Positions 3,384-46,068 of a stretch of 64,000 nucleotides of DNA are shown piece by piece. A model generated the notes under the pieces. That model ran no database searches. It was given only the letters and a program-made list of their open reading frames with translations, and was not told the origin of the DNA. Where the stretch lies: NCBI GenBank assembly GCA_030668485.1, contig DAOUTW010000012.1, forward strand, positions 12,834 to 76,833, written 5' to 3'. This stretch comes from Candidatus Zixiibacteriota bacterium (GTDB lineage Bacteria > Zixibacteria > MSB-5A5 > GN15 > JAAZOE01). The position numbers and the translations under genes are program-made. How positions within the stretch are numbered: position 1 is the first letter of the stretch; every line of letters begins with the position of its first letter.

Positions 3384-3396
3384 ATCCGGAGGGCTT

Positions 3397-8287: not shown

Positions 8288-8295
8288 GGATGGTT

Positions 8296-10257: not shown

Positions 10258-11112
10258 ATGGCGCAGCGAGTGCATATGTCGGAATTTTGGTACCTTTATG
10301 GTCAGACCTTTCGACTAATGGGCAAGGTAACTTTGTGGATTCCCCTGCTGGTGCAGGGAATACTGGCCCTGGTTCTGGTTTTAATGCATTATTATGTCTT
10401 TGCACCGGTGACCGGATCTATTATCGGGAGTTTGGCCGGACTGATAAATTCCGAATATGCCCCGTTGATGTATCATTATCCGTCTCATTTCGCCCTGCTG
10501 CCTTATTTCTTTGGTATTATCCGGTTAATATTGAATGTTTTGACTGAGGCCTTTCTGTTTGGAATTGTCATCGATTTACTGATAGCCATATATCGCGGCG
10601 AACGTCCTGCCTTTATGGTATCGGTGGTTGGCGCTCTGCGGAGGTATTTGCAACTGACTTTTGTCTGGCTGATCCTGATCGCCGTTTTGTACCTTCTTAA
10701 CAGCTACTTCAATACCTTTATTGAGGATGTCCTGGGGTATTCGTTGCAGGATGCGCCCCGACGAATGATGCTGACTCAACTGGTTTCCCGGGGAATGACG
10801 GTGCTAATTTACTCCGCCTGTATCTTCCTGCTTCCCAGTATCATGGCCGGAGGAGTCTCTTTCTGGGAGGCTATCAAAAGGGGTTTCAAAGTCTATGTGC
10901 GTCATCCGATAATAGCTTTTGGCCTGGTTCTGATTCCTTACTTGATCGGATTTTTGCCGTCGTGGGTGTTATCCGATCCGAATAAGATTGTAACCAATTT
11001 TTATCCTGAGTTGGTTCTATATCTGTTACTGGTATCTATCGGCGTCGATGTGATCGTCAATTTTATTCTTCTGGGGACGTCGCTCAAATTTTATATGGAT
11101 CAGTCCACCTAA
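10258..11112 (+). CDS. Multi-pass membrane protein of unknown function
   Basis: About 6 hydrophobic segments, 3 nt upstream of prsK. Confidence 0.65.
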   Translation: MAQRVHMSEFWYLYGQTFRLMGKVTLWIPLLVQGILALVLVLMHYYVFAPVTGSIIGSLAGLINSEYAPLMYHYPSHFALLPYFFGIIRLILNVLTEAFLFGIVIDLLIAIYRGERPAFMVSVVGALRRYLQLTFVWLILIAVLYLLNSYFNTFIEDVLGYSLQDAPRRMMLTQLVSRGMTVLIYSACIFLLPSIMAGGVSFWEAIKRGFKVYVRHPIIAFGLVLIPYLIGFLPSWVLSDPNKIVTNFYPELVLYLLLVSIGVDVIVNFILLGTSLKFYMDQST

Positions 11113-16195: not shown

Positions 16196-17263
16196 ATGCC
16201 GTCTGCCACAGGGGAACATAATCGCCTTGAAAGAAAGGCCGCCGATCAGATTGCCGATCGACTCAATTGTCTTTTCGGCGGCGGTCAGGATAATCTCCCG
16301 GCCATTCCGTCCGATAATAGCATCGGTTCTCCTCATCTGGTCGATTCTCTCGATGACGCCCCGCCTCGAATTATCAATTCCAATGGGTCGAAGGTAATTG
16401 TCTATGCCATCGACGGCGGATCGACGGTTCTTGCTCGTGGCGGTAATATTGAAGTAATAGCCTGGCGAGCCGGCATGGTCAAATTTCGAGACTGCAAACG
16501 CCTGAGTGAATCTTGTCCCTCTCCAAGAGTTCTTGCTTATAATCGGCTGGCCGTCAAAGATCAGATCGAAGAATTATTGATTGATTCTCCGGCGCAATAT
16601 ATTGCCTCACAGCCTCCTGCAAAGCTGGTCGACGAATTGCGTTGGCTGGCTGAGTGGCGGCTGATAGATGGCGTCATTCATAGCGCAGAAGCGGGATCTC
16701 TTGTCCTGATAGACGGGTCATTGCGTTGCAATCCCGCCTTCGATATGAAATTCCAAAGAGGAATACTTGCCTGGGCGGCTGAGCACGAGATTCATATAGC
16801 TGCCATCACAAAGCAGAGTTCCCTGTCGCTATCTCAGAATCTGCCGATCGATCTCAAATCGGACGGGGGAGAGGTGGTTGCTGATAGATTTCCAAAATGG
16901 TATCGTCAACTCAATCGCCCGTTGCCTGCATCCAGCGGCTGGCTGGGTAATATCTTCCTGGCGGGTTTGCACCCCGATGCCGACAAGCCATACCGGGTCG
17001 ATATCAACCGTCACGATGAAACCAATACCGAAAAGATATTCTCCATGATTGCGACTGTTTCCGATGATATTGAATTTTGCGGTTATCCCTACCCGTTGGC
17101 GGCGGCCCATCGTCTGGCCCGGATCGATAACCTGTTCCGGCAAGAATTAATCGGGGTCATCGGGCAGGCGCTGGACAGAAAGAACTTTGCTCCCCATATA
17201 TGGGAATATCTCGTGGGCGATATTCATGAAAAACTCAACGCCGATATGGTACAGGAAAAATAA
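16196..17263 (+). CDS. nurA: NurA 5'-3' nuclease
   Basis: YAIDGGS, LVLIDGSL, AAITKQS, GYPYPLAAAH motifs. Directly upstream of herA. Confidence 0.8.
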   Translation: MPSATGEHNRLERKAADQIADRLNCLFGGGQDNLPAIPSDNSIGSPHLVDSLDDAPPRIINSNGSKVIVYAIDGGSTVLARGGNIEVIAWRAGMVKFRDCKRLSESCPSPRVLAYNRLAVKDQIEELLIDSPAQYIASQPPAKLVDELRWLAEWRLIDGVIHSAEAGSLVLIDGSLRCNPAFDMKFQRGILAWAAEHEIHIAAITKQSSLSLSQNLPIDLKSDGGEVVADRFPKWYRQLNRPLPASSGWLGNIFLAGLHPDADKPYRVDINRHDETNTEKIFSMIATVSDDIEFCGYPYPLAAAHRLARIDNLFRQELIGVIGQALDRKNFAPHIWEYLVGDIHEKLNADMVQEK

Positions 17264-17264
17264 T

Positions 17265-18827
17265 ATGAGCCAGACATACATCGGAAGGCTGGTCGGCAAA
17301 TCGGTAGGCGAACTGTACTTCCGCTCTTTTTATGATACCCCCCTTTCCATCGGCGGCATTGCTATGGCGGTCGATGAACAAACCGGGCGAAAATTCCTCC
17401 TGAGGATAACCGACGTGAGTTACGGCCATGAAAGCGCCGAGGCGAACTGGGCGGAGAAAGCGGCCGGGCGGATGATGGAAGAAGATATTCACGGACGCTC
17501 CTACCGTATCCATGATCCCGATCGTCGTCTCTATAAACTGGCTAAATGTTCCCCGTTAGGCTATGTTTACAACAACCAGTTTCATCGCCCTCGGTCAATC
17601 CCTACTCACTTTTCCCAGGTTACTCTTCCTGACCCGCAAACGATGGAGTTTCTCAAAGAATACAGCGGTGATCTGATTGTCGGCGACCTGCGCTGCGGCG
17701 AATCGGTGATGGATATCCCCTTGGGAATAGACGGCCGCTCTCTGGCTCAGCACCTTGGAATCTTTGCCACCACTGGAATGGGTAAATCGAATTTGATGAA
17801 GGTCCTGGCCTCGGCGATTATGGAAAGCGGTCGATATGGACTTTTAATTTTCGATCCCCATGGTGAATACCACGACGGCGGCAAGGGGGGAGAAAATAAA
17901 GGTCTCGTCGATCATCCGGCGGCTTCCACGCGCCTTTTCTCGTATTCGCGGCGTAAGCTAAAAGGCGAACATGGAAATCTATCCATCCCGGTGAATGAAA
18001 TTGAGATCGAGGATATCGAGCAGATTTTCAGTTTCACCCAGGCACAACGCGAGGCCCTCTGGGCGGTCAGGATTAAATATAATAAAGAATGGCTCCGAAA
18101 GCTCTGCCACCTCGATATCGAAACCCTGACCGAAGAGCTCACCGCCGGTAGCTCTACCTTTCAGGAATCCACCCTCGGGGTTCTCAAACGCCGGGCACAG
18201 CGGATAGAAGATTTCAAATCGGTCAATTTTGATTCTACGCTTTCTACCAAAGGTGACATCGTCGGCAAATTACAGAACGGCTACACGGTGCTGGTCGACA
18301 CCGCCAATCTATCCGGGGCCGAGGAAACCATGATGACCTCGATCCTCACCCGGGCGGTCCTCAACAGCTATCGCTGGAAATATCAAACCGAGGGTGATTT
18401 CGACAACCTGGCGCCCTGCCTTATTATGCTGGAGGAAGCCCAACGAGTGCTGGCGGCATCGGCGGGAGACAGTAATGTCTTTCATCAGGTCGTCCGTGAG
18501 GGAAGGAAATTCAAAGTTGGCATGGGTGTCATCACCCAGCAGCCGAAACTGCTTTCCGAAGAACTCCTGTCGCAACTGAATTCGATTTTTATTCTCGGGC
18601 TGGCCGATGAGCGCGACCGCAGTGTGATTCGTTTTTCAGCAAAGCAGGACATCTCGGCTTTGGGAACCGAAATTCAGACGCTGGCGGCAGGCGAGGCGCT
18701 GCTGACCTCACCCACGGTCCCGTTCGCCTTGCCATTGAAAATTTATCTCTATGAACAATATCTGAACCGCTATACCGGGGAGGATAAACCGGGCGGCCGC
18801 GATAAGATCGCGGACGACTTCTTTTAA
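17265..18827 (+). CDS. herA: HerA bipolar helicase/ATPase (HAS barrel plus DUF87)
   Basis: HLGIFATTGMGKSN, IFDPHGEY, LEEAQR, REGRKF, TQQP. ATG at 17265, 1 nt after the nurA stop. Confidence 0.85.
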   Translation: MSQTYIGRLVGKSVGELYFRSFYDTPLSIGGIAMAVDEQTGRKFLLRITDVSYGHESAEANWAEKAAGRMMEEDIHGRSYRIHDPDRRLYKLAKCSPLGYVYNNQFHRPRSIPTHFSQVTLPDPQTMEFLKEYSGDLIVGDLRCGESVMDIPLGIDGRSLAQHLGIFATTGMGKSNLMKVLASAIMESGRYGLLIFDPHGEYHDGGKGGENKGLVDHPAASTRLFSYSRRKLKGEHGNLSIPVNEIEIEDIEQIFSFTQAQREALWAVRIKYNKEWLRKLCHLDIETLTEELTAGSSTFQESTLGVLKRRAQRIEDFKSVNFDSTLSTKGDIVGKLQNGYTVLVDTANLSGAEETMMTSILTRAVLNSYRWKYQTEGDFDNLAPCLIMLEEAQRVLAASAGDSNVFHQVVREGRKFKVGMGVITQQPKLLSEELLSQLNSIFILGLADERDRSVIRFSAKQDISALGTEIQTLAAGEALLTSPTVPFALPLKIYLYEQYLNRYTGEDKPGGRDKIADDFF

Positions 18828-18829
18828 TC

Positions 18830-19933
18830 ATGCGAATTATACATTTTGCGGATAATCACCTCGGAGCCGGTGTCGACCGTCGCCAGCAGGATATCCTCGA
18901 CAGTTTTGCCGTGGCGATCGATAAAATCATCGAGCTCAAACCCGACCTGGTGATCAATGCCGGCGATCTCTTCCATATGGTTCACCCGACCAATCGTGTC
19001 ATTGCTTTTGCCTCGGAACAACTGATAAAGCTGGGACGAGAAGCAAAAATACCGATGGCGATAATATCCGGCAACCATGATGCTCCCAAGCAAAGGCATA
19101 TCGGCGCTGTCCTGTCAATCTTCAAGGATTATGACAATATCTACCCGATCTATAAATCGCGCTATGAGCGATTTAATATCGGCGATTGCGCCATATCAGC
19201 CGTGCCGCATTGCTTGACTACCGATATCCTGAAGAGTGAATTGGAAAAAATAAAACCAGACCCGAGCGCTAAATACAATATTCTTATTCTCCACGGTGTC
19301 GTCGGGGGAATAAAAGAATTCCAGATGGCTGACCTCTCCGAGCAGGAGATCGCCGCCTCCTATTTCAATCTCGGTTTTGACTATGCCGCCCTGGGACATT
19401 ATCACAACTTTACCGAAATACAGCCGATGGTTTATTACTCCGGATCAACTGAAAGACTTTCGCAATCCGAGGCCGCCCATGATAAGGGTTTTATAGAGGT
19501 CAATTTCGAGTCTGATAGCGACAAAATAGTTTTTCACAAAATTAAATCGCGCGTTATGATTGACCTGCCGGCGGTGAAAGCAAAAGGGCGCACCGCCGAC
19601 GAAATAATGGCCGAACTGGAAAAGGCGGTCAAAGACCAAAATCCGGAAGACAAAATCATCCGAGTAAAATTGACCGATATCCCGGAAGAAACCTATCGCG
19701 CGTTGCCGTTCGACAAAATCAACGATTTGAAACATGAAGCTTTTTCGCTTGATGTTCAGTTCCAAAAGGAGGAGAAGCCGGAAGAAAACCTCTATGCCGA
19801 TCTCAATCTGGGGCGCCTTGACCAGGCCTTCGAAAAATTCATCGCCTCCAAAGTAATCGAAAATCTCGACAAGGAAAAACTGCAAAAAATGGCCCTGGAT
19901 CTCCTGCACCGAGCCGAGAGCGATGAACCCTGA
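18830..19933 (+). CDS. mre11: Mre11/SbcD nuclease
   Basis: Phosphoesterase motifs HFADNHLG, AGDLFH, SGNHD, LHG, ALGHYH, YSGSTE. Confidence 0.85.
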   Translation: MRIIHFADNHLGAGVDRRQQDILDSFAVAIDKIIELKPDLVINAGDLFHMVHPTNRVIAFASEQLIKLGREAKIPMAIISGNHDAPKQRHIGAVLSIFKDYDNIYPIYKSRYERFNIGDCAISAVPHCLTTDILKSELEKIKPDPSAKYNILILHGVVGGIKEFQMADLSEQEIAASYFNLGFDYAALGHYHNFTEIQPMVYYSGSTERLSQSEAAHDKGFIEVNFESDSDKIVFHKIKSRVMIDLPAVKAKGRTADEIMAELEKAVKDQNPEDKIIRVKLTDIPEETYRALPFDKINDLKHEAFSLDVQFQKEEKPEENLYADLNLGRLDQAFEKFIASKVIENLDKEKLQKMALDLLHRAESDEP

Positions 19934-23423: not shown

Positions 23424-24215
23424 ATGACGATTCTTGATGCGATTATCCTCGGTATTATTCAGGGGTTAACGGAATTCCTGCCGATCTCGTCTTCCGGACA
23501 TTTGGTCATCGGCGAAGCCCTATTGGGGCTTTCATCGCCTGGGATCAGTCTCGAAGTATGGCTTCATTTCGGGACCCTTCTGGCAGTTCTCTTATATTTC
23601 CACCGCCGACTAATTGGGCTTGTCGCGACAATATTCGGCGCCGGTGATCCGAAATATCGCGATGCCGACCGGAATTTTCTGGGAGCGATTATCATCGGAA
23701 CCATCCCGGCAATCGTCATCGGCCTGCTGTTTAAATCGGCGATCGAGTCGCTTTTTAATTCCCCGCGCTTTGCAGCTGCTATGCTGATTGTAACAGGACT
23801 GATCTTACTGGCAACCATATTTGCCAAAAAATCGGGGCAGAAAATAAACATGCCGCGCGGCCTGGCGATAGGGCTGGCTCAGGCTATGGCCATTCTCCCG
23901 GGAATATCAAGATCCGGCAGCACCATCGCCTGCGCCATGTTTGTCGGGGTAGAACCATCAGTGGCGGCTGAATTCTCCTTTCTACTGGCGGTGCCGATCA
24001 TAGCTCTGGCTTTTGGATATGATCTGGTGTTTTCCGGATCTCAGTTGTTTGCCTCCGATACGGTGTGGATTTACCTGGCCGGGACGGCTGTCTCATTCGT
24101 CATCGGTTTGCTGGCTATCCATTATCTGTTGAAAGTAATCCGGACCGGAAGATTTTATCTGTTCGGATTTTATTGCCTTGTGGCGGGAGTCGTTTCTCTT
24201 ATATTATTGAACTAA
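23424..24215 (+). CDS. uppP: Undecaprenyl-diphosphate phosphatase
   Basis: QGLTEFLPISSSGHL, PGISRSGST, AAEFSFLL. Confidence 0.93.
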   Translation: MTILDAIILGIIQGLTEFLPISSSGHLVIGEALLGLSSPGISLEVWLHFGTLLAVLLYFHRRLIGLVATIFGAGDPKYRDADRNFLGAIIIGTIPAIVIGLLFKSAIESLFNSPRFAAAMLIVTGLILLATIFAKKSGQKINMPRGLAIGLAQAMAILPGISRSGSTIACAMFVGVEPSVAAEFSFLLAVPIIALAFGYDLVFSGSQLFASDTVWIYLAGTAVSFVIGLLAIHYLLKVIRTGRFYLFGFYCLVAGVVSLILLN

Positions 24216-25777
24216 TGGACACGATTGTTGTTATCCGACTGGGTCGGCTGGGTGACGTTACTCTTACCTCGCCGACAATCAAGAATCTCCGGCTTTTATA
24301 TCCGGAGTCAAAAATTCTGCTGGTTACTCGGGAAATGTATAAACCGCTGGCCGAAATCCTGCCCGGAATCAGCCATGTTCTCACCTTTCCCGACACCGGA
24401 TCGTATTTCGATCTGGTCAAACTGTGTTCCCGTATAGATGAGTTTGAGCCGAAACTGGTAGTCGATCTGCATAAAAACTTCCGTTCTTTTCATCTGGCGA
24501 CGCTGACCAAAACCCCTTATAAGGTGGTATATCATAAACGTCGTAAGGAAAGACTGGCTGCCGTTCATGAAAAGAAATTCCTGTCCCCGGTACCGCATAC
24601 GGTCGATCTTTATAATGATATCCTCGGTCAGTTGAAAGGGGAGGTGCTGGCCCGATTGCCCGATTTAATGCTGCCCGATGAAGTGCTTGATCGACCAATG
24701 CCGGCGCGGGATGCGGTAGCCATTGTCCCCGGAGCCAGTTCGCCGGTTAAGGCATGGGCGGTGGGAAATTATGCCAAATTGGCCGAGAGAATAATTCACG
24801 ATTTCAAGCTTCCTATCCACCTCTATTTGGGTGAGAAAGAAACCGGTCTGGAAAAAGATTTTCTCCACCTCCCAAAAGGAAGTATCACCATCTACCGCAA
24901 TCATCCGCTGGTTGATATCGCTACGCTGCTGTCACAATGCCGGCTGACAGTTTCCAACGATTCCGGATTGATGCACGTCTCATCCGCAGTTGGAACGCCG
25001 ACGGTGGCCCTTTTCGGCCCGACCCATGAGCAACTCGGTTTCTATCCTCTGGGGCTTCATGATCTTCTGCTTGGTACCGATGACTCCTGCCGTCCCTGCT
25101 CACTGCACGGAAGTAAGGCCTGTTATCGAGAGGAGCAATACTGTTTTACCAATCTGAAAATAGATGATGTTTACAACCGGGTTGTTTCGGTGATCGAAGG
25201 TGTTAAACTTGATCCGGCTGTATTTATCGACCGCGACGGAACCCTTATTGAAGACAAACACTATCTGGCCGACCCTGAGAAGATAAAATTTCTACCCGGA
25301 TCACGCGAAAGCGTCGCGCGCCTGAAGCAAGCTGGATATAAAATAGTGATCGTCTCCAACCAATCCGGTGTCGCCCGTGGATTTTTCCCCACCACTACTG
25401 TGGATGAAGTTCATCAACGGATGGCCGAGTTGATGAAAAACGCCGGCTGTGAGCCGGATGATATCCGTTACTGCCCCCATCATCCCGATGGCGACGACCC
25501 GGAATATACCGGCCAATGCGATTGCCGCAAACCGAAAGGCGGCATGCTCGAGGCGGCAGCCATCGAACTGGGTATCGATATCAAGCGTTCCTTTATGATC
25601 GGGGACAAATTCAGCGATATCCAATGCGGGAAAATTGTCGGGGGACGCTCAATTCTGGTCCGGACCGGCAAAGGAGCCGAAACCGAAAAGGAACTCCCCG
25701 CCGAACCGTATTTGACTCCGTATATTATTAGTGATGATCTGGCTGCTGCCATTGACCATATTTTGTCTCGGAAATGA
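24215..25777 (+). CDS. Fusion of GT9 heptosyltransferase and D-glycero-D-manno-heptose-1,7-bisphosphate phosphatase (GmhB)
   Basis: GT9 motifs RLGRLGDV and SNDSGLMHVSSAVGTPTVALFGPT. HAD motifs FIDRDGTL, VSNQSGVARG, CPHHP, CDCRKP, IGDK. ATG overlaps the uppP stop. Confidence 0.88.
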   Translation: MDTIVVIRLGRLGDVTLTSPTIKNLRLLYPESKILLVTREMYKPLAEILPGISHVLTFPDTGSYFDLVKLCSRIDEFEPKLVVDLHKNFRSFHLATLTKTPYKVVYHKRRKERLAAVHEKKFLSPVPHTVDLYNDILGQLKGEVLARLPDLMLPDEVLDRPMPARDAVAIVPGASSPVKAWAVGNYAKLAERIIHDFKLPIHLYLGEKETGLEKDFLHLPKGSITIYRNHPLVDIATLLSQCRLTVSNDSGLMHVSSAVGTPTVALFGPTHEQLGFYPLGLHDLLLGTDDSCRPCSLHGSKACYREEQYCFTNLKIDDVYNRVVSVIEGVKLDPAVFIDRDGTLIEDKHYLADPEKIKFLPGSRESVARLKQAGYKIVIVSNQSGVARGFFPTTTVDEVHQRMAELMKNAGCEPDDIRYCPHHPDGDDPEYTGQCDCRKPKGGMLEAAAIELGIDIKRSFMIGDKFSDIQCGKIVGGRSILVRTGKGAETEKELPAEPYLTPYIISDDLAAAIDHILSRK

Positions 25778-26775
25778 TACGCGAAGCATTATATTATACC
25801 CGGCTGAATGATAGCCGTGTTCATTGCCGGCTGTGTCCGCTCGAATGCCGCCTGAAACCGGACCGGCGAGGTATTTGCCGCTCCCGCTTTAATTCCGACG
25901 GCATACTCAAAACCGATAATTTTGGCGAAACCGTTACGATCGCGACTGATCCGATCGAGAAGAAACCGCTCTACCATTTTTACCCGACCGCCAATATTGT
26001 TTCAATCGGTCCTAATGGCTGCAATCTCTCCTGCCGTCATTGCCAAAATTGGAATATTTCCCAGGAAAAGGCGACGACCCGTTACGTCGATCCGGAACGG
26101 TTACCTGATATCGCCGCCCAACAAGGCTCAATCGGAATCGCCTATACTTATACCGAGCCGATCATATGGTACGAATACATTCTTGAAACAGCGCCGCGTA
26201 TCAAAGAGGCGGGGATGGTCAATGTCATGGTTTCCAATGGATATATCAACCCCGAACCCCTACAGGAACTGTTGCCCGTAATCGATGCCTTCAATATTGA
26301 TCTCAAAGGTATACGCCCCGAATTCTACCGCAGGGTCTGTCGTGGCAGCCTGGAACCGGTACTTGAGGCAATTAGTATTATTGCGAAATCGCCGGCTCAC
26401 CTCGAAGTCACATACCTGATTATTCCCGGCCTCAACGACGACGACGAAGATTTTCATAAGGTGGGCAAATTCTTGGCCACGGTTGCTTCATCCATTCCCT
26501 TGCACCTGTCTGCCTACCATCCCAGCTACAAAGCCGACAGCCCGCCGACATCGCGGGATAAACTGATCCGCGCTCATAAAATAGCCAGGGAATATCTGTC
26601 CCATGTTTTTATAGGCAATATGGAAATAAAAAACTGTTCCAATAGCTACTGCCCTGAATGTGGGCAAAGGCTAATCGAAAGATCGTGGTATCGGGTAAGG
26701 CTGGATGGAATCGACAGCGACGGTAAATGCAAAAAATGTGGCCATAAATCGACTATTATCCTGTCCTCAGGATAA
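25774..26775 (+). CDS. amrS: AmmeMemoRadiSam system radical SAM enzyme
   Basis: CRLCPLEC, DPIEKKPLYHF, GCNLSCRHCQNWNISQ, AYTYTEP, C-terminal CPECG...CKKCG. Confidence 0.88.
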   Translation: MIREALYYTRLNDSRVHCRLCPLECRLKPDRRGICRSRFNSDGILKTDNFGETVTIATDPIEKKPLYHFYPTANIVSIGPNGCNLSCRHCQNWNISQEKATTRYVDPERLPDIAAQQGSIGIAYTYTEPIIWYEYILETAPRIKEAGMVNVMVSNGYINPEPLQELLPVIDAFNIDLKGIRPEFYRRVCRGSLEPVLEAISIIAKSPAHLEVTYLIIPGLNDDDEDFHKVGKFLATVASSIPLHLSAYHPSYKADSPPTSRDKLIRAHKIAREYLSHVFIGNMEIKNCSNSYCPECGQRLIERSWYRVRLDGIDSDGKCKKCGHKSTIILSSG

Positions 26776-37454: not shown

Positions 37455-37480
37455 ATAAATTTGCTGCCCCAATAACTTCA

Positions 37481-37510
37481 TGTGGGCGGCAGACGCCCTC
37501 GTCTGCCCCA
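37481..37510. repeat. REP-like palindrome
   Basis: GTGGGC-GGCAGACG-ccct-CGTCTGCC. Related sequence at 42690-42726. Confidence 0.5.
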
Positions 37511-37620
37511 GCTCGGGTGGCCCGCCATTTATTCCCGTTACGGCAGGTCTTTATCCGCCCATGCAGATTGTCACCCGCCGCCATCAGTAACGCCTCAGGC
37601 AATACGGCAATAAATACCGC

Positions 37621-37649
37621 TTGACACTTATCACAATACTTGATAGATT
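37621..37649 (+). promoter_or_regulatory. Sigma-70 promoter
   Basis: TTGACA-N17-TAGATT. Confidence 0.55.
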
Positions 37650-37839
37650 AAATATAGTTAATGGCATGTTGGCATAAACAACTCAGGCATTTCAAAAATT
37701 ACTAGAGCATAAGTGTCGACTGTTGGTATCTGCTCTGGGAGGGTAGTAAATCGGCTGAATTTAATTCTACTTTTCAATCTTGAATTTAAAAAAAGAGTAG
37801 TTCGGAATTGTTCCGGATTGCCAAACACGGGAGGGTTTT

Positions 37840-38739
37840 ATGAGGATGTACAAGTTATCAATTACGTTTGCTCTAATCGGTATTCTTATTGCCTTATTGA
37901 TGGGGTGTGACAGGACTGAATCGCCCGCCTCACCATCAAAGGTGGTTTACACCGGGAGTTCGGAAAAGGGAATAGGCCCGCCCATTATCCCAATGCCGAT
38001 ATTTACAACCTACTTGCCCAACACGGCAATGATTCAGGTCTGGGAGGCCGACTATATCGGCGGCAAGATGGTGATGGAGCTTGACTATCTTCAGGCTCAT
38101 GAAGAGCAGGAATCGGGTGACATGATAATGAAGGTCACTCCGGATTTTTGTAGTGTTGAGCTATGCAATACTGCTGGAGTTCCATTCTATTCTTATACCA
38201 TTACAGAAGATGGGGGCGTCAATACAACTACAATCTGGTATCAGGATGGAGATTATAGTTATACCTATATTGCAGAAAGTGATGGTTCGTATCATCAGGA
38301 AGCGTCGGCTGGTGCAACCTCCGATTATATCGAATTCGCCAGCTATGAGGAAATGGAATTGGCCTATTCTCTGTATTTGGACATCATCGTTGAGGGGAAT
38401 GGAAATCAATCGAGCCTGCCTCCGTATGAGGCACAGTTGTTAATCGACCTCGTAGCCTGGGTGGATTATCTGGATTCTATTGGAGAGCCGGACTTCACGG
38501 TGGCAATCGAAACCGGCTTACTGCTGTTAGAGGACGAAACCTATTTAGCCTTTCTGGATAACAATTTTGGCGATCAAATCGAGCCATTTAGGGGTATGTT
38601 CTGCGACTTCTACCGCGGCATTGATGATATATGTCGTGCAGTAATACGTGCTGGTGAAATAGGGCAGCTAGATCTTGATGACATATATACATGTACTGCG
38701 GCTGGTATTGGAACGATATTATGTAGCCTTTGGCCCTAA
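37840..38739 (+). CDS. Hypothetical acidic lipoprotein with Cys-rich C-terminus
   Basis: GGAGG RBS, lipobox LLMGC, four Cys in the last 45 aa. Confidence 0.65.
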   Translation: MRMYKLSITFALIGILIALLMGCDRTESPASPSKVVYTGSSEKGIGPPIIPMPIFTTYLPNTAMIQVWEADYIGGKMVMELDYLQAHEEQESGDMIMKVTPDFCSVELCNTAGVPFYSYTITEDGGVNTTTIWYQDGDYSYTYIAESDGSYHQEASAGATSDYIEFASYEEMELAYSLYLDIIVEGNGNQSSLPPYEAQLLIDLVAWVDYLDSIGEPDFTVAIETGLLLLEDETYLAFLDNNFGDQIEPFRGMFCDFYRGIDDICRAVIRAGEIGQLDLDDIYTCTAAGIGTILCSLWP

Positions 38740-38761
38740 CCATAGTAATTACTGACTGGTG

Positions 38762-38798
38762 ACCCATCCGCCATTTGTTTGCCGAATGGCGGGTGGGT
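38762..38798. terminator. Stem-loop after lipoprotein gene
   Basis: acccatccgccatt / aatggcgggtgggt. Confidence 0.5.
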
Positions 38799-39091
38799 TC
38801 CCGCTTTCCCCAATATTTACACGGTGCCATCTACTTAGCCAACTGAGCCTGTAGCCCGGGAGCCCTGCCGAAGGTCCTGAGCTAATGCGAAGGGTGCTCC
38901 CGGGAATCGTAAGGTGGGGTACAAAGTATTTTGAGTGGCAGTCCAAAAAGTGATTGCGCAGTTATAAATACCGCGTATTATACACTATTCGTTGATGTTC
39001 AGCATCATGGGGTAATTTCGAGTTCGAGGGTAGTCTATTTAAAATTGGATAAATATCAGAGGTGAATGCAATATTAACATAGGGGTGACTC

Positions 39092-41230
39092 GTGGCCAAA
39101 GAAGGCAAAGCAAAAAAATACAAAATAATCACTGACTTTGGCGATTCTGAAGTAAGGGCAAAGTCGAAAGATAACCTACCTAAATATTTTCGCGAATGGT
39201 CATCTGTTAGTCTAATACCGCCATTGAGACAGAAAAAATGGAATCAGTCCATTCGCCGAGTAAATGTGTTAGGCTATCCGCCATTGGACATTTATTCAGA
39301 ATGGCTAATGGATTTTGCTTCAATAAGCGCCTGTCAATTGGACAGGACTGACTGGGAAAACTTTAGGCGAAGTATACTGATTCACCTTCCCAAATGCCCA
39401 CTATACTGCTGGTATTGCTTCAATGATGCGTGGCCTACAAAAAAGGAAGCGAAGGCTGAAGATGATATACAGTGTGATAAAATAGTCAGGGCTGAGGAAA
39501 TCACCGTTTCAAAGCTTCTAGTCGAGTTCAAGAAACTCCATAATGAAAGCCATGATTTCGAAGGGAGGCAGTACAATCTGTTGCGAATTTCAGGTGGTGA
39601 ACCATTCACGGAACCTGAATTCATTGAGGAACTCGCACGGGGATTTGGAGAAATATTTGAAAAGACAGAAGCATTTCTTTGGGTAGATACGAATCTAATA
39701 CCTTTCACAAAAGGTATAAAGCCCGAACATGAGAAAGCGATTGACGCCATAAAATCATTAGGGAATCAGGCCGCAATTCATTGCTGCCTTCACGGGGGCG
39801 ATAACGAATCATACGAGCAAAATACGCTTGCCAAGGTCGACATAAAGGGAATCTATAAAGCGATAGAAGGAATTTTTAAGAAAAACGTCAATCTTTATCC
39901 CAGGATCAACCCCATTGGTCTGACTCCATCACTTGCCAAAGATATCTTTAAAAGTCTGAGCAAGATTGACGAATCTTTGCCCGCAAAGACGTATTTGGGT
40001 CCGGTGGAAATCCATTATGACGCGGCAATAGATCGTATGCTATTATTCCATGGCAAGAATCCTAAATGTAATCCGAGGACCAAGCCCTCTCCAAAGGTGA
40101 ACACTAATCCTCCTGCTTACCACCCACCAAATGCGGTGATCTACGAATGGAATAGGTTAATGAAGCGAGCCTATGGATTCGGTTACGCTGTTGTCCCCCG
40201 CCATCTGGATGTAAAATTCATTGATAAAAATTGGATTGAAAAAGTTGATGTAACCGGATGCAAACAAAAGTGGGAAGAAATATTTATTGTCACGAAAGGG
40301 TGGCGTAAAGAGGTGTATGCACGAAAGCTGCTCGAGTTATTGGCCTTGCCAACTGGGGCAAAAATTGAAATAGAATATGAGAATAGGTGGGTCGATCCAA
40401 CCCTCCTTGCCCACATCTACGCAGCCCCCGATTATTATCAAGATAGAAAATTCAATATTTTATTCGTCGCTTCATTTCAAGATGAATATCGCCTTCCACC
40501 AGTAATGCCATTGCGATGGGGAACTTTGCGCAAAGTTCGCACGGAGCATCTTTCCGAAGATCAGTCAGTTCTATTCGAGGCAACTGTTGATGAATATGCC
40601 GTCAATTTCGAGAAATGCATTGGGGCGTCAAAAGAATTGGATGTGGCCGAGAAACTGGCGGAATATATTGGATTGAATAATCTGCCGTATCCCAATCCCA
40701 TTGGGAATTTCTGCCAATTAATTGGAGTTGAGTTAAAACAGGACATAAAAAATGGCCAGCCCCAAGGATCGTTCAAAGCTACGGTTGTAAATGTGAGCAA
40801 TAAAACTCGCAACAAAAATTACGCCAAGTCGCTGAAAGACATATACTACCGCATAAAAAGTATTTCCTGTGCAAACCCGACCGCGGGAAAGGATAAAGAA
40901 GTTCCTCTAAGTGATAGTGGTGATTTAGAGTTGCACGAAAATGACGAAATTGCCATTGAAATTGAGTCCTGTAATCCACACTTCGGGGATATTGGCTATC
41001 CAGACGTTCATGAGGCACAACTTCAAATTCTGTCAAGTCCGCCTGACAAAATTCAAATATCCCCGGAACGAATAGCTTTATCCAAATATGGAAGCAATAC
41101 GATTAGGATAAAATTCCCCAGAGAAGGCTATTTCGAAGGTGAGATTATCGTGCGTCCGGAATCTACTGAAATCCGTCTCGCTGAGATTAGTATTCCCTTC
41201 AAGGTAAATGTGGAGAAAAATGATGAGTGA
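39092..41230 (+). CDS. Radical SAM protein fused to an uncharacterised C-terminal region
   Basis: HLPKCPLYCWYCF (CX3CX2C at 39395-39418), LRISGGEPF, WVDTN, CCLHG. About 320 extra C-terminal residues. Confidence 0.8.
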   Translation: MAKEGKAKKYKIITDFGDSEVRAKSKDNLPKYFREWSSVSLIPPLRQKKWNQSIRRVNVLGYPPLDIYSEWLMDFASISACQLDRTDWENFRRSILIHLPKCPLYCWYCFNDAWPTKKEAKAEDDIQCDKIVRAEEITVSKLLVEFKKLHNESHDFEGRQYNLLRISGGEPFTEPEFIEELARGFGEIFEKTEAFLWVDTNLIPFTKGIKPEHEKAIDAIKSLGNQAAIHCCLHGGDNESYEQNTLAKVDIKGIYKAIEGIFKKNVNLYPRINPIGLTPSLAKDIFKSLSKIDESLPAKTYLGPVEIHYDAAIDRMLLFHGKNPKCNPRTKPSPKVNTNPPAYHPPNAVIYEWNRLMKRAYGFGYAVVPRHLDVKFIDKNWIEKVDVTGCKQKWEEIFIVTKGWRKEVYARKLLELLALPTGAKIEIEYENRWVDPTLLAHIYAAPDYYQDRKFNILFVASFQDEYRLPPVMPLRWGTLRKVRTEHLSEDQSVLFEATVDEYAVNFEKCIGASKELDVAEKLAEYIGLNNLPYPNPIGNFCQLIGVELKQDIKNGQPQGSFKATVVNVSNKTRNKNYAKSLKDIYYRIKSISCANPTAGKDKEVPLSDSGDLELHENDEIAIEIESCNPHFGDIGYPDVHEAQLQILSSPPDKIQISPERIALSKYGSNTIRIKFPREGYFEGEIIVRPESTEIRLAEISIPFKVNVEKNDE

Positions 41231-42491
41231 ATTATCTTTGGGCGAAACTGAAGACGACAAAAAGAAATTGAAGTGTTTTACAGTCAAGTGTAAGGATTTT
41301 TGCACTCATACATTTTTGACAGGTCAGTCAGGATCCGGGAAAACGGAAATTCTTGCCAGAATTATTGAAGAACTAATTCTTCACGGTTGTGGCAACATCC
41401 TTTTGTTTGATTTCAATTATGAATTTATGCATCTCAAAGAAGTCAATAATGATGCATTTAATAAACGCAAAACAAAATGGATAAAGCAGAATTGCGCGGG
41501 GAATGTTCGGAATGAGTTTAATGATGAGTGGAACAAGTTGAACAATGAATTTGAAATACTTGAATCCAAAGATTTAAAAATACACTACGATGATATCTGT
41601 GAAGATTTCTTGATGAAATTGATGGATATAGATGGCAAGAATCATCCTGGGGCTGCCTGGCTTGTGGATTTGATCAAGAAAGATCGCGATTTTAGTGAGC
41701 AGATTGGGAATGCAGAGAGTTTCAAAAAATTAATCGACAATTTTAGACGGTGGAGCGAGGGACGAACATCGAAGGATGAGCAATCCAAGGTATCCCAAAA
41801 TCTGTTTAATCAAATTCAACGATTCGCTGATCCTCTTGACTTTACTCGGCTCCGGAACGGCGCCGAGAAAGTTGTGAACATCGCAAATATTGAATGGGGC
41901 AATACTGTAGATAAGAAAAACTCTATCAGTGAGGAGTTTTTGTCAGGGCTATTCGATGACAAACGGCTGATTTCTTTGGATATGTTAGGTTTTCGATATG
42001 ATAATCGATTCGTTAGAGACCTTATCGCTCTGCAGGCTCTTAATAATATTTGGAAAATCGCCCGTAAAAGGTACATTGAAGCGTCTGAAAAAGGTAAAGG
42101 CGAGGAGATAACGCCCCCTATCTTCATCGTAATTGATGAAGCGCACAATATCGTTCCGGGGGAGTCAGCAGATACTCTATTCGCTAAAGAGATTTCTGAG
42201 ATTATCAGGACAATTGCCGCAGAAGGCAGGAAATTTAAAATATTCCTGATTCTAATATCTCAACGTCCGGATAAAATCCATCGTTCTGTGATCTCGGAAT
42301 GCCAGAATTATATTATTATGAAATCAATTCCACCGACCATTGAAAAACTACACGATTTGTTGCCTAGTAATCTAAATTCCGAACTTGAAAGGCTAATAAA
42401 TTATAAGAAAGGCGATGCGCTATATTACGGTAAGTTTACAAAATATGATCATAAAAAAGTTAGTGGTGATATCCGCCGTACGAAGAAATAG
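41220..42491 (+). CDS. HerA/FtsK-family (DUF87) ATPase lacking the HAS barrel
   Basis: HTFLTGQSGSGKT, LFDFNYEF, FIVIDEAHN, AEGRKF, ISQRP. ATG 41220/41223 overlaps the upstream stop. Confidence 0.85.
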   Translation: MMSELSLGETEDDKKKLKCFTVKCKDFCTHTFLTGQSGSGKTEILARIIEELILHGCGNILLFDFNYEFMHLKEVNNDAFNKRKTKWIKQNCAGNVRNEFNDEWNKLNNEFEILESKDLKIHYDDICEDFLMKLMDIDGKNHPGAAWLVDLIKKDRDFSEQIGNAESFKKLIDNFRRWSEGRTSKDEQSKVSQNLFNQIQRFADPLDFTRLRNGAEKVVNIANIEWGNTVDKKNSISEEFLSGLFDDKRLISLDMLGFRYDNRFVRDLIALQALNNIWKIARKRYIEASEKGKGEEITPPIFIVIDEAHNIVPGESADTLFAKEISEIIRTIAAEGRKFKIFLILISQRPDKIHRSVISECQNYIIMKSIPPTIEKLHDLLPSNLNSELERLINYKKGDALYYGKFTKYDHKKVSGDIRRTKK

Positions 42492-43086
42492 AGGCGGATT
42501 TTCGTGGTTGGCGTACGTCCCCGTGCCCCAACAATCGGGCTGGCGGACGAGCAATATCCACCGGGGGCGATTGCTTTTATTGCAGTTAACACCGCATATG
42601 TTTTTTGACTGAAATATCATCAGGCTGTAATCCAATCACTTAAATACTGAGTAGCCCGCCCAGGGTTCGTCGTGGCAAATGTCGGGCCATGTGGGCGGTA
42701 CCCGCCGCGGCGGGCTGGTCTGCCCCAGCGATTACCATAGCAACCGATTCAGATCATCCACGCGACAGCCAAAAGGTGGCCCCTGCCACCTGCCTGCAAA
42801 ATCAACATAGAATCGCTGTAGATCCTGTCCCTTTCCCAATTATTGAACCTGATCATTCAAGGAGTAATACGGATGCACGTAAACGAAATGAAAATCCCAT
42901 CGAAGGCCAAAACAGGGAAAAACCTTAATTATGAAAAACGAACCCAAAACCATTGCGATACAAGCATATCAGCCTGAGACAGAGCCTGAAATGATGCCCA
43001 AAAAAGAAAAACTTTAAAAATGAGCGACCAAAGCCAAATCCCTTACAATCCCAAGCGCGACAAACCATTATGGGACATAAAATGAC

Positions 43087-43117
43087 GGCGGGTGTATGTA
43101 AAATACATACACCTGCC
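43087..43117. repeat. 14-bp stem hairpin
   Basis: ggcgggtgtatgta-aaa-tacatacacctgcc. Confidence 0.6.
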
Positions 43118-43135
43118 TGTTTCGTGATGGATTCT

Positions 43136-43199
43136 TGTGCCCGGCATATGTCCACATCTGCCGGGCAATCGGGCACATGTGGACATGTGCTACGCACAA
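43136..43199. repeat. REPIN-like inverted doublet
   Basis: ttgtgcccggcatatgtccacatctgcc followed by its near reverse complement ggcacatgtggacatgtgctacgcacaa. Confidence 0.55.
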
Positions 43200-43378
43200 A
43201 GACAGGTGCCCCGTGGTCGTCAGACCTGGGAATATAGCCGGAGTTTTATGCTACGCTAAGCTGTTACGTCTCTGTGCATTATCTATACAAAATTGCGTCT
43301 AATAATCGGTAAAGATATGAGGCCTCCGGTCGAATCTATTGGTAAGTGCACCTTTTTTAATCGATTAAGGAGGCAGTA

Positions 43379-43984
43379 ATGAAGAAGTGTATGTATGTGC
43401 TCGTGGCTATGTTTGTTCTGACTTCGGTCGCCTCGGCCCAGAACCCTAATCCGTTCAATCTGTACCTCGGCGGAGCCATCTCGATTCCGAATTCGCCGGC
43501 TGAATTCGCCGATAGTTACAAAACCGGATTACACGGTTTTGTCGGTGTTGGCTATTCAGTGATGCCGAATTTGCAGGCGATTGGCAAGATCGAATTCAAT
43601 CGTTTCCCACTTGATCTCGGATCAGATCAGTCCTTCCTGGGTGAAGATATTACAGGTGGGCATAATAATATGTGGATGTTCGGTGTCGACGGTCGTTATA
43701 CCTTCAGTCTTCCGTCCGCTCCGATCAAACCGTTCCTTCTTGGCGGCGTCGGCCTCGCCCGGATATCGCCGACTCAATTGGAAGGCACCAGCGATCTGGT
43801 CGCCAGTCTGAATGAATTCCAGCCGGATACTCAAAATAAAGTTTATTTCAATGTCGGCGCCGGTATCGAACTGAAGGCGGGACCGATGTGGCAGGTGTTT
43901 GCCCAGGTTCGCTATGTCTCCGTCGCTACCGAGGGGGACCCCGCAACATTTATCCCGGTCAGCCTTGGTCTCAAGTTCTTCTAA
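43379..43984 (+). CDS. Outer membrane beta-barrel (OmpA/OmpW-like) protein
   Basis: AAGGAGG RBS, signal peptide ASA-Q, KPFLLGGVG, NVGAGIEL, terminal FF. Confidence 0.75.
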   Translation: MKKCMYVLVAMFVLTSVASAQNPNPFNLYLGGAISIPNSPAEFADSYKTGLHGFVGVGYSVMPNLQAIGKIEFNRFPLDLGSDQSFLGEDITGGHNNMWMFGVDGRYTFSLPSAPIKPFLLGGVGLARISPTQLEGTSDLVASLNEFQPDTQNKVYFNVGAGIELKAGPMWQVFAQVRYVSVATEGDPATFIPVSLGLKFF

Positions 43985-44013
43985 AGCAGACTATACGGTA
44001 TTGTTACTCCAAT

Positions 44014-44046
44014 AAAAAAAGGGCGCCTCTTTGAGACGCCCTTTAA
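44014..44046. terminator. Terminator shared by convergent genes; repeated at about 46301-46333, 47403-47436 and 48508-48540
   Basis: A-run, aagggcg(c/t)ct...agacgccctt stem. Confidence 0.75.
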
Positions 44047-44073
44047 ATTTGTGCTCTTGTTACGATCTTGCTA

Positions 44074-44715
44074 TTATTTCATGCGCTTGCGGAATCTGGC
44101 ACCCATACCGATCAATCCGAGGCCGAGGAGGGCCATAGTGGTCGGTTCCGGAACGGCGGAGGGGCTGTAAACGCCGCTGGCATCGCCGGACATATTGTCG
44201 ACAATCCACCAATTACTTTCACTCTCCATAGTGACATAGGCGATATCGCTCATCCCCGTTGCCACCGTCAGATAAAACATTCCGTTTTCATTACCGTCCT
44301 GATACCTCAAATTGCTCGGGCCGGAAATATAACTGAGTAGATTATCATTGATATCGTAGGCTTTAAGCGTAAAGGTCATGTATGTACTATAACCGGTGGT
44401 AAAAAAAGAAGCATCGGCGTTGTCAAAATCGATACGGCCCATTTGCATAAAGGAGCCAGCAACCCCAACATAGCCCTCCATCCAATACTGTCCGGTCGAC
44501 CATTCGAGGCCAAGATCATAGCTGGAGAAGCCCCAGTTATCCGTGGTTGCATCGGCGTAAGACATGTCGCTGGAAAAATTCAGGCCGGGAACCCCCGATT
44601 GAATCTGTTCGAGGTCATGTCCAAGCCCCCACTCGAAGTCGAGGAACCAGGCATGGCTGGTGCCGGTGAAGGCGAACAAAGCGACCATTAAAACCAGTAT
44701 CTTTGCCGTTCTCAT
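44074..44715 (-). CDS. PEP-CTERM sorting domain protein, paralogue A1
   Basis: Signal peptide SHA-W, C-terminal VPEPTTMALLGLGLIGMGARFRKRMK. Confidence 0.92.
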   Translation of the reverse strand: MRTAKILVLMVALFAFTGTSHAWFLDFEWGLGHDLEQIQSGVPGLNFSSDMSYADATTDNWGFSSYDLGLEWSTGQYWMEGYVGVAGSFMQMGRIDFDNADASFFTTGYSTYMTFTLKAYDINDNLLSYISGPSNLRYQDGNENGMFYLTVATGMSDIAYVTMESESNWWIVDNMSGDASGVYSPSAVPEPTTMALLGLGLIGMGARFRKRMK

Positions 44716-44754
44716 CGTGTAACCTCCAAATTTATTCTTTGTTGCAGCTTTATA

Positions 44755-45393
44755 CTATTTCATGCGTTTGCGGAGTCTGGCACCCATACCGATCAAGCCG
44801 AGGCCGAGGAGGGCCATTGTGGTCGGTTCGGGAATGGGGCTAGACACGCCACTGGCATCGCCGGACATATTGTCAGCAATCCAACTATTACTACCTGTAG
44901 GACAACCCATAGTGACATAGGCAATATCGCTCATTCCCGTTGCCACCGTTAGATAACCCATTCCTGCATCATTATCGTTTATATACCTCAAATTGCTTGG
45001 GCCGGTAACAAAACTGAGTAGATTATCATTGATATCGTAGGCTTCGAGGGTAAAGCTATAGAAGGAACTATAACCGACGGTGAAAAAAGAAGCATCGGCG
45101 TTGTCAAAATCGATACGGCCTATTGCTGCGGAGGAAGTAACCCCAACATAGCCTTCGATCCAAAACTCTCCGAGATTCCACTCAAGACCAAGATCGTAGC
45201 TGGATGTATTCCATAAATCGCTCATAGCATCGAGGTAATACAATTCATCACCAAAGTCCATACCCGGGATACCCGATTGAATCAACTCATAGTTATGACC
45301 CAAGCCCCACTCGAAGTCGAGGAACCAGGCATGGCTGGTGCCTGCGAAGGCGAACAAGGCCACCATTAAAACCAGTATCTTTGCCGTTCTCAT
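44755..45393 (-). CDS. PEP-CTERM protein, paralogue A2
   Basis: Same architecture, IPEPTTMALLGLGL tail. Confidence 0.92.
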   Translation of the reverse strand: MRTAKILVLMVALFAFAGTSHAWFLDFEWGLGHNYELIQSGIPGMDFGDELYYLDAMSDLWNTSSYDLGLEWNLGEFWIEGYVGVTSSAAIGRIDFDNADASFFTVGYSSFYSFTLEAYDINDNLLSFVTGPSNLRYINDNDAGMGYLTVATGMSDIAYVTMGCPTGSNSWIADNMSGDASGVSSPIPEPTTMALLGLGLIGMGARLRKRMK

Positions 45394-45432
45394 TGTGTAA
45401 CCTCCAAATTTATTCTTTGTTGCAGCTTTATA

Positions 45433-46068
45433 CTATTTCATGCGTTTGCGGAGTCTGGCACCCATACCGATCAAACCGAGGCCGAGAAGGGCCATAGTGG
45501 TCGGTTCCGGAATGGGGCTAGACACGCCACTGGCATCACCGGACATATTATCAACAATGCAATAATGATCCCTACCATGCATCAAGACATAGGCAATATT
45601 GTTCGATCCCGTTGAAACAGTCAGATAGCCCATTCCTGCAGAGTTACCATCTGCATACCTCAAATTGCTCGGGCCGGAAACATAATTGAGTAGATTATCA
45701 TTGATATCGTAGGCTTCTAGTGTAAAGCCTTCGTAGGCACTATAACCGGTGGTGAAAAAAGATGCATCGGCGTTGGTAAAATCGATACGGCCGATTCCAT
45801 CCGAGAGTGGAGCAACCCCAACATAACCTTCGATCCAATACTGTCCGGTTCCCCATTCGAGGCCAAGATCGTAGCTGGAGAAGCCCCAATTGCCCGCGCT
45901 TGCGTCGCAGTATTGCGCACTATCGGAAAACGTCAGGCCGGGAATCTCCGATTGAATTCGCTCTCTGTTGTGTCCCACACCCCATTCGAAGTCGAGGAAC
46001 CAGGCATGGCTGGTGCCGGTAAAGGCGAACAAAGCGACCATTAAAACCAATATCCTTGCCGTTTTCAT
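45433..46068 (-). CDS. PEP-CTERM protein, paralogue A3
   Basis: Same architecture, first gene of a probable three-gene operon. Confidence 0.92.
   Translation of the reverse strand: MKTARILVLMVALFAFTGTSHAWFLDFEWGVGHNRERIQSEIPGLTFSDSAQYCDASAGNWGFSSYDLGLEWGTGQYWIEGYVGVAPLSDGIGRIDFTNADASFFTTGYSAYEGFTLEAYDINDNLLNYVSGPSNLRYADGNSAGMGYLTVSTGSNNIAYVLMHGRDHYCIVDNMSGDASGVSSPIPEPTTMALLGLGLIGMGARLRKRMK

Follow-up and report, generated by a model that had tools for sequence, protein, structure and literature searches.

The DNA examined here is a stretch of 64,000 nucleotides (the window) from a Candidatus Zixiibacteriota bacterium (GenBank assembly GCA_030668485.1, contig DAOUTW010000012.1, positions 12,834 to 76,833). 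It contains two overlapping genes, gene 1 and gene 2 (Table 1), which sequence comparison identifies as a real two-gene module that is conserved, moves horizontally and has its active sites intact. Gene 1 encodes a radical S-adenosylmethionine (SAM) enzyme fused to a two-domain C-terminal half, a tentative base reader followed by an immunoglobulin (Ig)-like domain (the reader+Ig module), and gene 2 encodes a short HerA/FtsK-class ATPase. We read the two genes, with slightly less than even confidence, as a horizontally acquired operon that would act against phages or plasmids through reader-guided radical chemistry on nucleic acid. An earlier note on this DNA, made from the letters alone, had proposed an effector–HerA pair with a radical SAM enzyme in the effector slot. 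Much of its description proved accurate: the two overlapping open reading frames (ORFs) on the forward strand, their AT-richness relative to the surroundings (gene 1 has a GC of 0.421 and gene 2 one of 0.379, compared with 0.488 in the window and 0.529 in the upstream dnaK-dnaJ genes), the DUF87/HerA ATPase that starts near its Walker A motif and has no HAS barrel, and the presence of a separate nurA-herA-mre11 operon elsewhere in the window.

Conservation and genomic context of the gene pair

A search of 5.8 billion proteins yielded 18 full-length homologues of gene 1, with 33–45% identity. All of them are between 618 and 721 aa long, so the entire architecture of gene 1 is conserved. In all five independent loci in which the pair could be scored (the window and loci L001, L006, L007 and L009), an ATPase homologue lies directly downstream of the gene 1 homologue. 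(L007 and L008 are identical, and L002, L005, L010 and L011 end too early to be scored.) Restriction-modification (R-M), TIR or AbiJ genes stand beside the pair in each of the four loci outside the window. It is this position among restriction and abortive-infection genes elsewhere that makes the pair a good candidate for a new anti-phage system. The survey of homologue neighbourhoods that the earlier note had suggested came out in favour of a kept pair and, outside the window, of a defence context. No conjugation, secretion or uptake genes were found beside the pair in the five loci.

The radical SAM enzyme and the module also occur as two separate genes (the split form, described below), and some of these loci have similar neighbours. 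At L016, Eco57I-like, N6_N4 methylase and DpnII genes lie alongside, and at L014 an Eco57I/MmeI-like gene is 5.7 kb away; the three neighbours scanned at L020 gave no match. Near the fused system of L007 (8854–9330) and the split one of L020 (363–833) there are two ORFs of ≈157 aa that have no family assigned and look alike by eye.

Several more distant loci have neighbours of other kinds. Distant relatives of the radical SAM enzyme, with 21–33% identity, occur with small nucleoside 2-deoxyribosyltransferase-like proteins at L003 (6623–8852), L025 (1106–3988) and L004 (7617–9819). The first two, which are candidate-phyla-radiation loci, also have a nucleoside-diphosphate-kinase-like gene (by eye), while L004, from Micromonospora, has a HisG-type phosphoribosyltransferase gene in addition to its Nuc_deoxyrib_tr-like gene. 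At L019, a PHP-domain gene (2458–3390) converges on a split-form radical SAM gene. On the viral-collection contig L038, an adenosine-deaminase-type hydrolase gene (8145–9359) lies beside the module, with a large MmeI-like methylase gene nearby, both read by eye.

The radical SAM domain of gene 1

The radical SAM core, which had first been recognised by its CX3CX2C and ISGGEP signatures, is confirmed by the conservation of the cysteines and of SGGEPF in 19 of 19 sequences. The Pfam Radical_SAM model (PF04055) matches residues 97–266 just under its cut-off (27.9 bits vs 29.5 bits; E 3.2e-6), and a precomputed PF04055 match is present on most gene 1 homologues. Further invariant motifs in the 19-sequence alignment are NDAW, WxDTNL, HxCxH, RxNP and YLG, together with residues across the C-terminal half.

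An AlphaFold model of gene 1, calculated from the homologue alignment, had a pLDDT of 86.6 and a pTM of 0.89. In a Foldseek search, the best matches to the N-terminal domain were structures of pyruvate formate-lyase activating enzyme (8fo0 and 3cb8, E 4e-8), followed by BlsE, MoaA, SkfB, SuiB, viperin-like enzymes and many others. In the model, these matches mark the minimal radical SAM core, a partial TIM-barrel fold, and indicate no substrate. Gene 1 lies outside the viperin, PflA and NrdG families because its scores against the equivalog models were 12–13 bits, with cut-offs of 131–232: 13.1 bits vs 180 for viperin (NF038283), 13.1 vs 231.75 for PflA (TIGR02493) and 12.4 vs 131.15 for TIGR02495, which served as a test for glycyl-radical activases. 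The PADLOC pVip match was weak and partial (E 0.0079, residues 100–181), lying around the cluster motif, and the pVip matches cover ≈60–70 residues. No match to gene 1 was found in PHROGs.

The reader+Ig module

The ≈320 residues that follow the radical SAM domain, previously regarded as unexplained, are instead a conserved module of a YTH-like and an Ig-like domain that elsewhere makes up a separate, membrane-anchored protein. In the split loci, found in metagenome and genome scans, a radical SAM enzyme of ≈350 aa matches gene 1 residues 55–371 with ≈26% identity, and its gene adjoins that of a ≈370-aa protein, placed either downstream or divergently. Comparison of this partner with gene 1 residues 395–705 gave an hhalign probability of 98.2 (E 5.8e-14, 272 columns). 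This profile–profile homology indicates that gene 1 unites, by fusion, two genes found singly at other loci. The split partner ends in two hydrophobic helices, a membrane tail that is not present in gene 1. Using local hidden Markov models, the radical SAM gene and its partner were found adjacent in 11 of the 11 split loci with enough DNA, one of which is a viral-collection contig. An ATPase gene was found in 0 of these 11.

The middle domain of gene 1 is tentatively modeled as a YTH/PUA-like base reader. R475 is invariant across the fused and split forms of the module, and several aromatic positions are conserved. Foldseek, run on PDB and BFVD with the C-terminal model, gave Ig-like matches only and none to the middle domain, and the VIA list was likewise Ig-like. 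A profile of the C-terminal half gave only marginal, unrelated matches to PDB sequences, the best being an ARID protein (E 0.008). In Protein Atlas, the C-terminal half and the middle domain had scores of ≤0.81 or no usable match. PADLOC-DB 2.0.0 contains no model for either gene 1 or the module.

The module belongs to a large family. Among 1.84 billion cluster representatives, its profile matched 1646 at E ≤0.001 and 628 at E ≤1e-10. We sorted 160 module proteins by architecture: 19 of the gene 1 type plus 141 others from among the 150 matches listed, where nine of the 19 also appear. Most (101) are stand-alone proteins with one or two predicted membrane helices. Radical SAM fusions account for 20 proteins without the membrane tail and 14 that keep it; 11 proteins have other N-terminal extensions, three have other C-terminal extensions and 11 are partial. 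Among those with other extensions, two (P0184 and P0271, 523–648 aa) have the module fused to HAD hydrolase domains, and a third (P0239, 914 aa) joins it to a defence-type Ser/Thr kinase, with matches to the PD-T4-6 and mad6 models (E 1e-64 to 1e-68) and to PglW-type ones (E ≈1e-65). The module is thus joined to several different enzymes, as is usual for the sensor and adaptor domains of defence systems.

The ATPase encoded by gene 2

By its sequence, gene 2 is a P-loop ATPase of the HerA/FtsK class with intact catalytic motifs. The DUF87 model matches it with 37.8 bits, above the 23.2-bit cut-off (E 2.8e-9). A HAS barrel would not fit ahead of the Walker A motif, whose first residue is number 39 of 427; by comparison, the window's own herA has ≈175 residues ahead of DUF87, which starts at residue 176. 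R341 and Q352 are candidates for the arginine finger and the sensor glutamine, respectively, roles that we assigned by analogy from the accessible text of a description of HerA/FtsK proteins (PMC10853773). A C-terminal RT dipeptide, within a conserved RRTK-like tail, is also invariant in alignment A5.

The nearest relatives of gene 2 are nine proteins of 410–444 aa (E 7e-91 to 7e-48), after which there is a sharp drop to generic DUF87 proteins. Four of the nine agree with a gene 1 homologue in the length of their longest contig (13813, 43804, 3288 and 6618), in line with the pairing of the two genes. The NCBIfam equivalogs for anti-phage HerA gave only 44–65 bits against cut-offs of 800–850, the best being 65.4 vs 850 (NF042944), and there were weak matches to the CedD, EccC, VirB4 and TraD models. 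A complex prediction with gene 1 residues 388–712 and gene 2 scored 0.00 in both runs, which we take as no answer and as evidence neither way.

Distribution and evolution

The sequences indicate that the fused form is very rare and patchy. A motif-based scan of 185,579 species genomes found it in two records, and the metagenome collection held six distinct loci (seven rows, as L008 repeats L007). A search of 40 relatives did not find gene 1, the single other match being marginal and confined to the core, and a tblastn search with gene 1 against plasmid and phage collections gave no match. On viral contigs, alignment A1 detected one split-form locus (L038) and two core-only matches, and alignment A2 none. 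A scan of the window's phylum for the module, made without reference to the radical SAM enzyme, matched three of 285 genomes, including the window's own. Horizontal acquisition of the pair is concluded from its low GC content, the failure to find gene 1 in the 40 relatives and an empty site in a genome of the same genus.

A radical SAM tree was calculated by a quick maximum-likelihood method with SH-aLRT support only; the root was placed at the midpoint for drawing, and the tree is in effect unrooted. Module-only proteins, P0178 (which has a partial N-terminus), the duplicates L008 and L017 and the fragments L002, L005, L010 and L023–L029 were left out. The fused proteins group together (support 99), and the 19 gene 1-type proteins, which have no tail, form a single clade (support 100) nested in the fused proteins that keep the tail. 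These nested groups fit an order of events in which split genes were fused and the membrane tail was then lost together with the gain of the ATPase. The tree is thus consistent with an ancestral unit of radical SAM enzyme and reader+Ig module, to which the HerA-type ATPase was added later in one clade. The effector–HerA reading proposed in the earlier note is supported in part.

The locus and its surroundings

If gene 2 starts at its first ATG, the two genes overlap by 23 nt. The likeliest starts, judged by sequence, are the ATG codons at 41220 and 41223, which are the best supported, lying 4–7 nt past a GGAG at 41212–41215; they leave an overlap of 8–11 nt with gene 1, whose stop codon is TGA at 41228–41230. 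The database copy of gene 2 has 422 aa, which fits the start at 41223.

Table 1. Features of the gene pair and its surroundings (coordinates refer to the window), and genes beside the pair at other loci.
Feature	Position	Strand	Description
Low-GC insertion	37455..44073	.	GC 0.438, 6.6 kb; lipoprotein ORF, gene 1, gene 2 and outer-membrane barrel gene
Upstream spacer	38740..39091	.	352 nt; hairpin 38757-38799; REP-like element ≈38851-38909; no long ORF
Gene 1	39092..41230	+	ORF, 712 aa, GTG start; three domains (radical SAM, YTH-like, Ig-like)
Radical SAM domain, residues 1-375	39092..40216	+	Conserved N-terminal extension, ≈residues 55-95, common to split-form enzymes
C102-x3-C106-x2-C109, [4Fe-4S] cluster site	39395..39418	+	Invariant in 19/19 sequences
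ISGGEPF 166-172, SAM-binding GGE motif	39587..39607	+	S167, G168, G169, E170, P171 and F172 invariant
YTH/PUA-like alpha/beta barrel (tentative), residues 388-595	40253..40876	+	YTH is the best structural match, weak
Ig-like beta-sandwich (MSP/PapD/ASH type), residues 596-712	40877..41227	+	
Gene 2	41208..42491	+	ORF, 427 aa from first ATG; short HerA/FtsK-class ATPase
Walker A, GQSGSGKT, residues 39-46 of 427	41322..41345	+	G, S, G and K invariant in alignment A5
Walker B Asp-Glu, residues 310-311 of 427	42135..42140	+	D and E invariant in A5
AAEGRKF to SQRP: candidate arginine finger R341, sensor glutamine Q352	42228..42263	+	Invariant in A5
Downstream spacer	42492..43378	.	887 nt; REP-like ≈42500-42534 and 43134-43169; no long ORF
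L001			TIR_2 gene directly upstream of pair (E 2.7e-21)
L006			HsdM, HsdS and HsdR (complete type I R-M) directly upstream; NucS-like and Metallophos + AAA_27 (SbcCD-like) genes downstream
L007			AbiJ_NTD3 (E 1.3e-50), 955-aa methylase-like gene, HNH, resolvases
L009			857-aa Eco57I-type (type IIG R-M) gene directly downstream

In the same-genus genome G001, the site is empty: a PEP-CTERM gene directly follows dnaJ. Because dnaJ adjoins the PEP-CTERM gene there, the low-GC segment was taken as an insertion in the window genome. Beyond the insertion, tandem paralogues of ≈212 aa at 44074–46068, with further paralogues to ≈49200, end in what looks by eye like a PEP-CTERM-like sorting motif; in the same-genus genome, it is this family that comes after dnaJ. 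Ahead of gene 1, a 299-aa ORF (37840–38739) has a lipoprotein-type signal, no Pfam match and a strong promoter-like site before it (37621–37649). We weighed the genes for this lipoprotein and for the outer-membrane barrel as candidate components of the system and rejected them, as no homologue of either was found in eight fused-form loci. No tRNA was found within the window.

The spacers on either side of the pair had been described as palindrome-rich and isolating. They do contain hairpins (in the downstream spacer at 43087–43117, which is terminator-like, and at 43135–43199) and have no long ORF; the palindromes are not, however, specific to the operon. Elements of 30–60 nt at ≈37477–37510, 38851–38909, 42500–42534 and 43134–43169 behave like repetitive extragenic palindromic (REP) sequences or miniature inverted-repeat transposable elements (MITEs). 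Short palindromic elements of this kind are present in dozens of copies with 85–97% identity across related genomes, and are therefore lineage-wide REP-like repeats rather than a feature of the operon. A direct repeat, 37479–37512 and 42688–42729, was considered for the ends of an island and rejected, since the elements recur in relatives and the insertion reaches 44073. An Rfam scan gave only two sub-threshold hairpin matches, to microRNA models, which we take as chance.

The repair-type operon mentioned above (16196–19933) stands downstream of two sigma-54 response regulators and consists of nurA (16196–17263; NurA E 1.3e-7), herA (17187–18827; 546 aa, DUF87 E 2.6e-27) and an Mre11-type metallophosphoesterase gene (18830–19933). 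A second, unrelated radical SAM gene (25774–26775; PF04055 E 1.4e-19) follows a heptosyltransferase-HAD fusion (24065–25777) and a BacA gene.

Possible functions of the pair

In the anti-phage or anti-plasmid system that we favour, the ATPase would form a ring that engages or pumps the invading DNA, or, by analogy with SIR2-HerA, DUF4297-HerA and MAD7-MAD8, a ring that scaffolds and gates gene 1. The reader-like module would recognise some feature of the foreign nucleic acid, and 5'-deoxyadenosyl-radical chemistry in the radical SAM domain would then damage or modify the captured nucleic acid. The parent family has a membrane tail in place of the ATPase, and the two therefore look like alternative ways of placing or triggering the same enzyme. 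This specific mechanism, reader-guided radical chemistry on ATPase-handled nucleic acid, is speculative. Wider still is the possibility that a base reader aims radical SAM chemistry directly at invader nucleic acid, in what would be a new immune-effector class; a HerA/FtsK-type motor would deliver the nucleic acid in one lineage, the enzyme would work from a membrane anchor in the ancestral ones, and the whole family would be an undescribed, modular defence family. We regard this generalization as unlikely.

Several observations weigh against a nucleic-acid-directed defence system. We infer the defence role throughout, and we know of no radical SAM enzyme that serves as an immune effector on DNA. 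In the Foldseek search, the radical SAM core was as close to protein-activating and small-molecule enzymes as to enzymes that act on nucleic acid. In the window itself, the neighbours of the pair are dnaJ, the lipoprotein, OMP_b-brl and PEP-CTERM proteins, with no defence genes among them, and elsewhere the defence-gene neighbours were counted over only five fused loci and without a background rate. The ATPase gene of L006 has a single in-frame TGA (10870–10872), which could reflect a pseudogene, a sequencing error or recoding. Lastly, two distant genes with the reader, Ig domain and membrane tail (G069 and G039), found in the phylum scan described above, have no radical SAM gene of the family within 7 kb, and their neighbours, read by eye, look like housekeeping genes.

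The pair might also be a defence system of another kind, in which a small antiviral nucleotide analogue is the product of the radical SAM domain, the module is a sensor or regulator and the ATPase ring a scaffold or gate. Viperin makes an antiviral nucleotide analogue, and the same has been proposed for Ophion. The distant radical SAM relatives adjoin genes of nucleotide metabolism (L004, L003 and L025, with the PHP gene at L019), there are weak partial pVip matches around the cluster motif, and the fusion partners of the module include HAD hydrolases, often nucleotidases. Ophion, with its radical SAM enzyme, PHP protein and phosphoribosyltransferase (PRTase), provides a precedent in the available text of its description (10.1101/2025.09.30.679545). 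However, the viperin equivalog score is far below its cut-off and the pVip matches are short, the nucleotide-gene neighbours belong to distant relatives (21–27% identity) and not to the fused clade, and an ATPase of the DNA-pump type has no obvious role in the synthesis of a soluble product. We consider a nucleotide analogue, which is the chief alternative among the defence readings, rather unlikely. Taken together with our favoured reading of radical chemistry on nucleic acid, it makes a defence role of one kind or the other probable on the sequence evidence.

A role outside immunity, in which the pair serves a mobile element or the cell as a module for modifying or transferring nucleic acid or envelope components, with the ATPase as translocation motor and the radical SAM enzyme as maturase or modifier, would accommodate the weak matches of gene 2 to CedD, EccC, VirB4 and TraD and the predominance of stand-alone, membrane-helix forms among the module proteins (101 of 160). 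The lipoprotein and outer-membrane barrel genes in the window insertion and the housekeeping contexts of G069 and G039 point the same way. We find such a role distinctly unlikely, given the very patchy distribution, the lack of conjugation, secretion or uptake genes beside the pair in the five loci, and the failure to find the lipoprotein and barrel genes beside gene 1 homologues elsewhere.

A protein or peptide maturase, either a glycyl-radical activase or an enzyme for ribosomally synthesized and post-translationally modified peptides (RiPPs), acting on the ATPase, the module or an unannotated small peptide, is very improbable: the closest structure and the only PDB sequence match (profile E 0.011) are pyruvate formate-lyase activating enzyme, and the fold matches include two RiPP maturases, SkfB and SuiB, but this likeness may reflect the shared minimal core only, the PflA score is far under its cut-off, there is no SPASM or auxiliary-cluster cysteine set (one further cysteine, C232, is invariant), no glycine is invariant across the module in its fused and split forms, and no conserved small ORF lies beside the pair.

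Should the pair protect against phages, the HerA-scaffolded systems would gain an effector that works by radical chemistry, and the sizeable dark-matter family of reader+Ig proteins would gain a function. A radical SAM reaction not seen before, on nucleic acid or nucleotides, could also come to light. The series of split, fused-with-membrane-tail and fused-with-ATPase forms is a natural set of constructs for dissecting the parts.

Comparison with known systems

Effector+HerA pairs and radical SAM enzymes (viperins and Ophion) are each an established theme in immunity. The joint system is not in the libraries and literature searched: no named system in PADLOC-DB 2.0.0 matches the pair, and the literature yielded no system in which a HerA-type ATPase or the module is paired with a radical SAM enzyme, supplementary tables, DefenseFinder and subscription journals being outside the search. 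The earlier note had known of no described system with this pairing, and within that scope we agree. The sequences place the pair with the effector plus HerA-class ATPase systems, within a larger undescribed family.

SIR2-HerA and DUF4297-HerA resemble the pair in being two-gene operons with an enzymatic effector beside a HerA-class ATPase, and anti-phage HerA complexes (8xau, 9c1m, 8ziq and 8j4u; E 4e-13 to 1.5e-7) are among the nearest solved relatives of gene 2. They differ in the effector, which is a radical SAM fusion here; gene 1 has no SIR2 or DUF4297 match in Pfam or PADLOC. Furthermore, only the last ≈110 residues of gene 2, which has no HAS barrel, align with the PADLOC HerA models and the solved HerA structures.

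The ATPase also has a match in MADS. Residues 33–423 of gene 2 align end to end with the mad8 model (28–302 of 314, E 2.6e-23), and MAD7-MAD8 is described, in the accessible text, as the ATPase-nuclease module that MADS defence requires (PMC13662399). MADS itself is an eight-gene operon (mad1-mad8), whereas there are two genes here, with no methyltransferase in the operon and no match of gene 1 to any mad model. The HerA/FtsK "capture" systems (DndH and its relatives), which in the available descriptions are predicted to act against invaders and stand beside DNA-reading domains (PMC10853773, PMC12839542), share with the pair a HerA/FtsK-class domain with sensor glutamine and arginine finger; their partners in those descriptions are restriction-type nucleases, Orc/Cdc6 or PglZ, and the accessible text mentions no radical SAM partner.

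Type IV restriction systems of the EVE-HNH and YTH/EVE-McrB kinds would, if the YTH-like assignment holds, share the principle of a base reader joined to an effector (PMC6765204, PMC7897488). As far as the text of those papers was available, they differ in that the effector is a nuclease there and a radical SAM enzyme here, the fold assignment being weak.

What gene 1 has in common with the viperins and with OpnA of Ophion is a radical SAM enzyme set in a defence-island context. The available description presents Ophion as a validated defence system in which a radical SAM enzyme works with PHP and PRTase proteins (10.1101/2025.09.30.679545); these two partners are not in this operon, and by gene content the systems differ. 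In the accessible accounts of viperins and Ophion, neither the reader+Ig fusion nor the HerA-type pairing is described. Nucleotide chemistry, and possibly a link to Ophion, is hinted at by the Nuc_deoxyrib_tr-like, HisG-like and PHP genes that lie near the distant radical SAM relatives.

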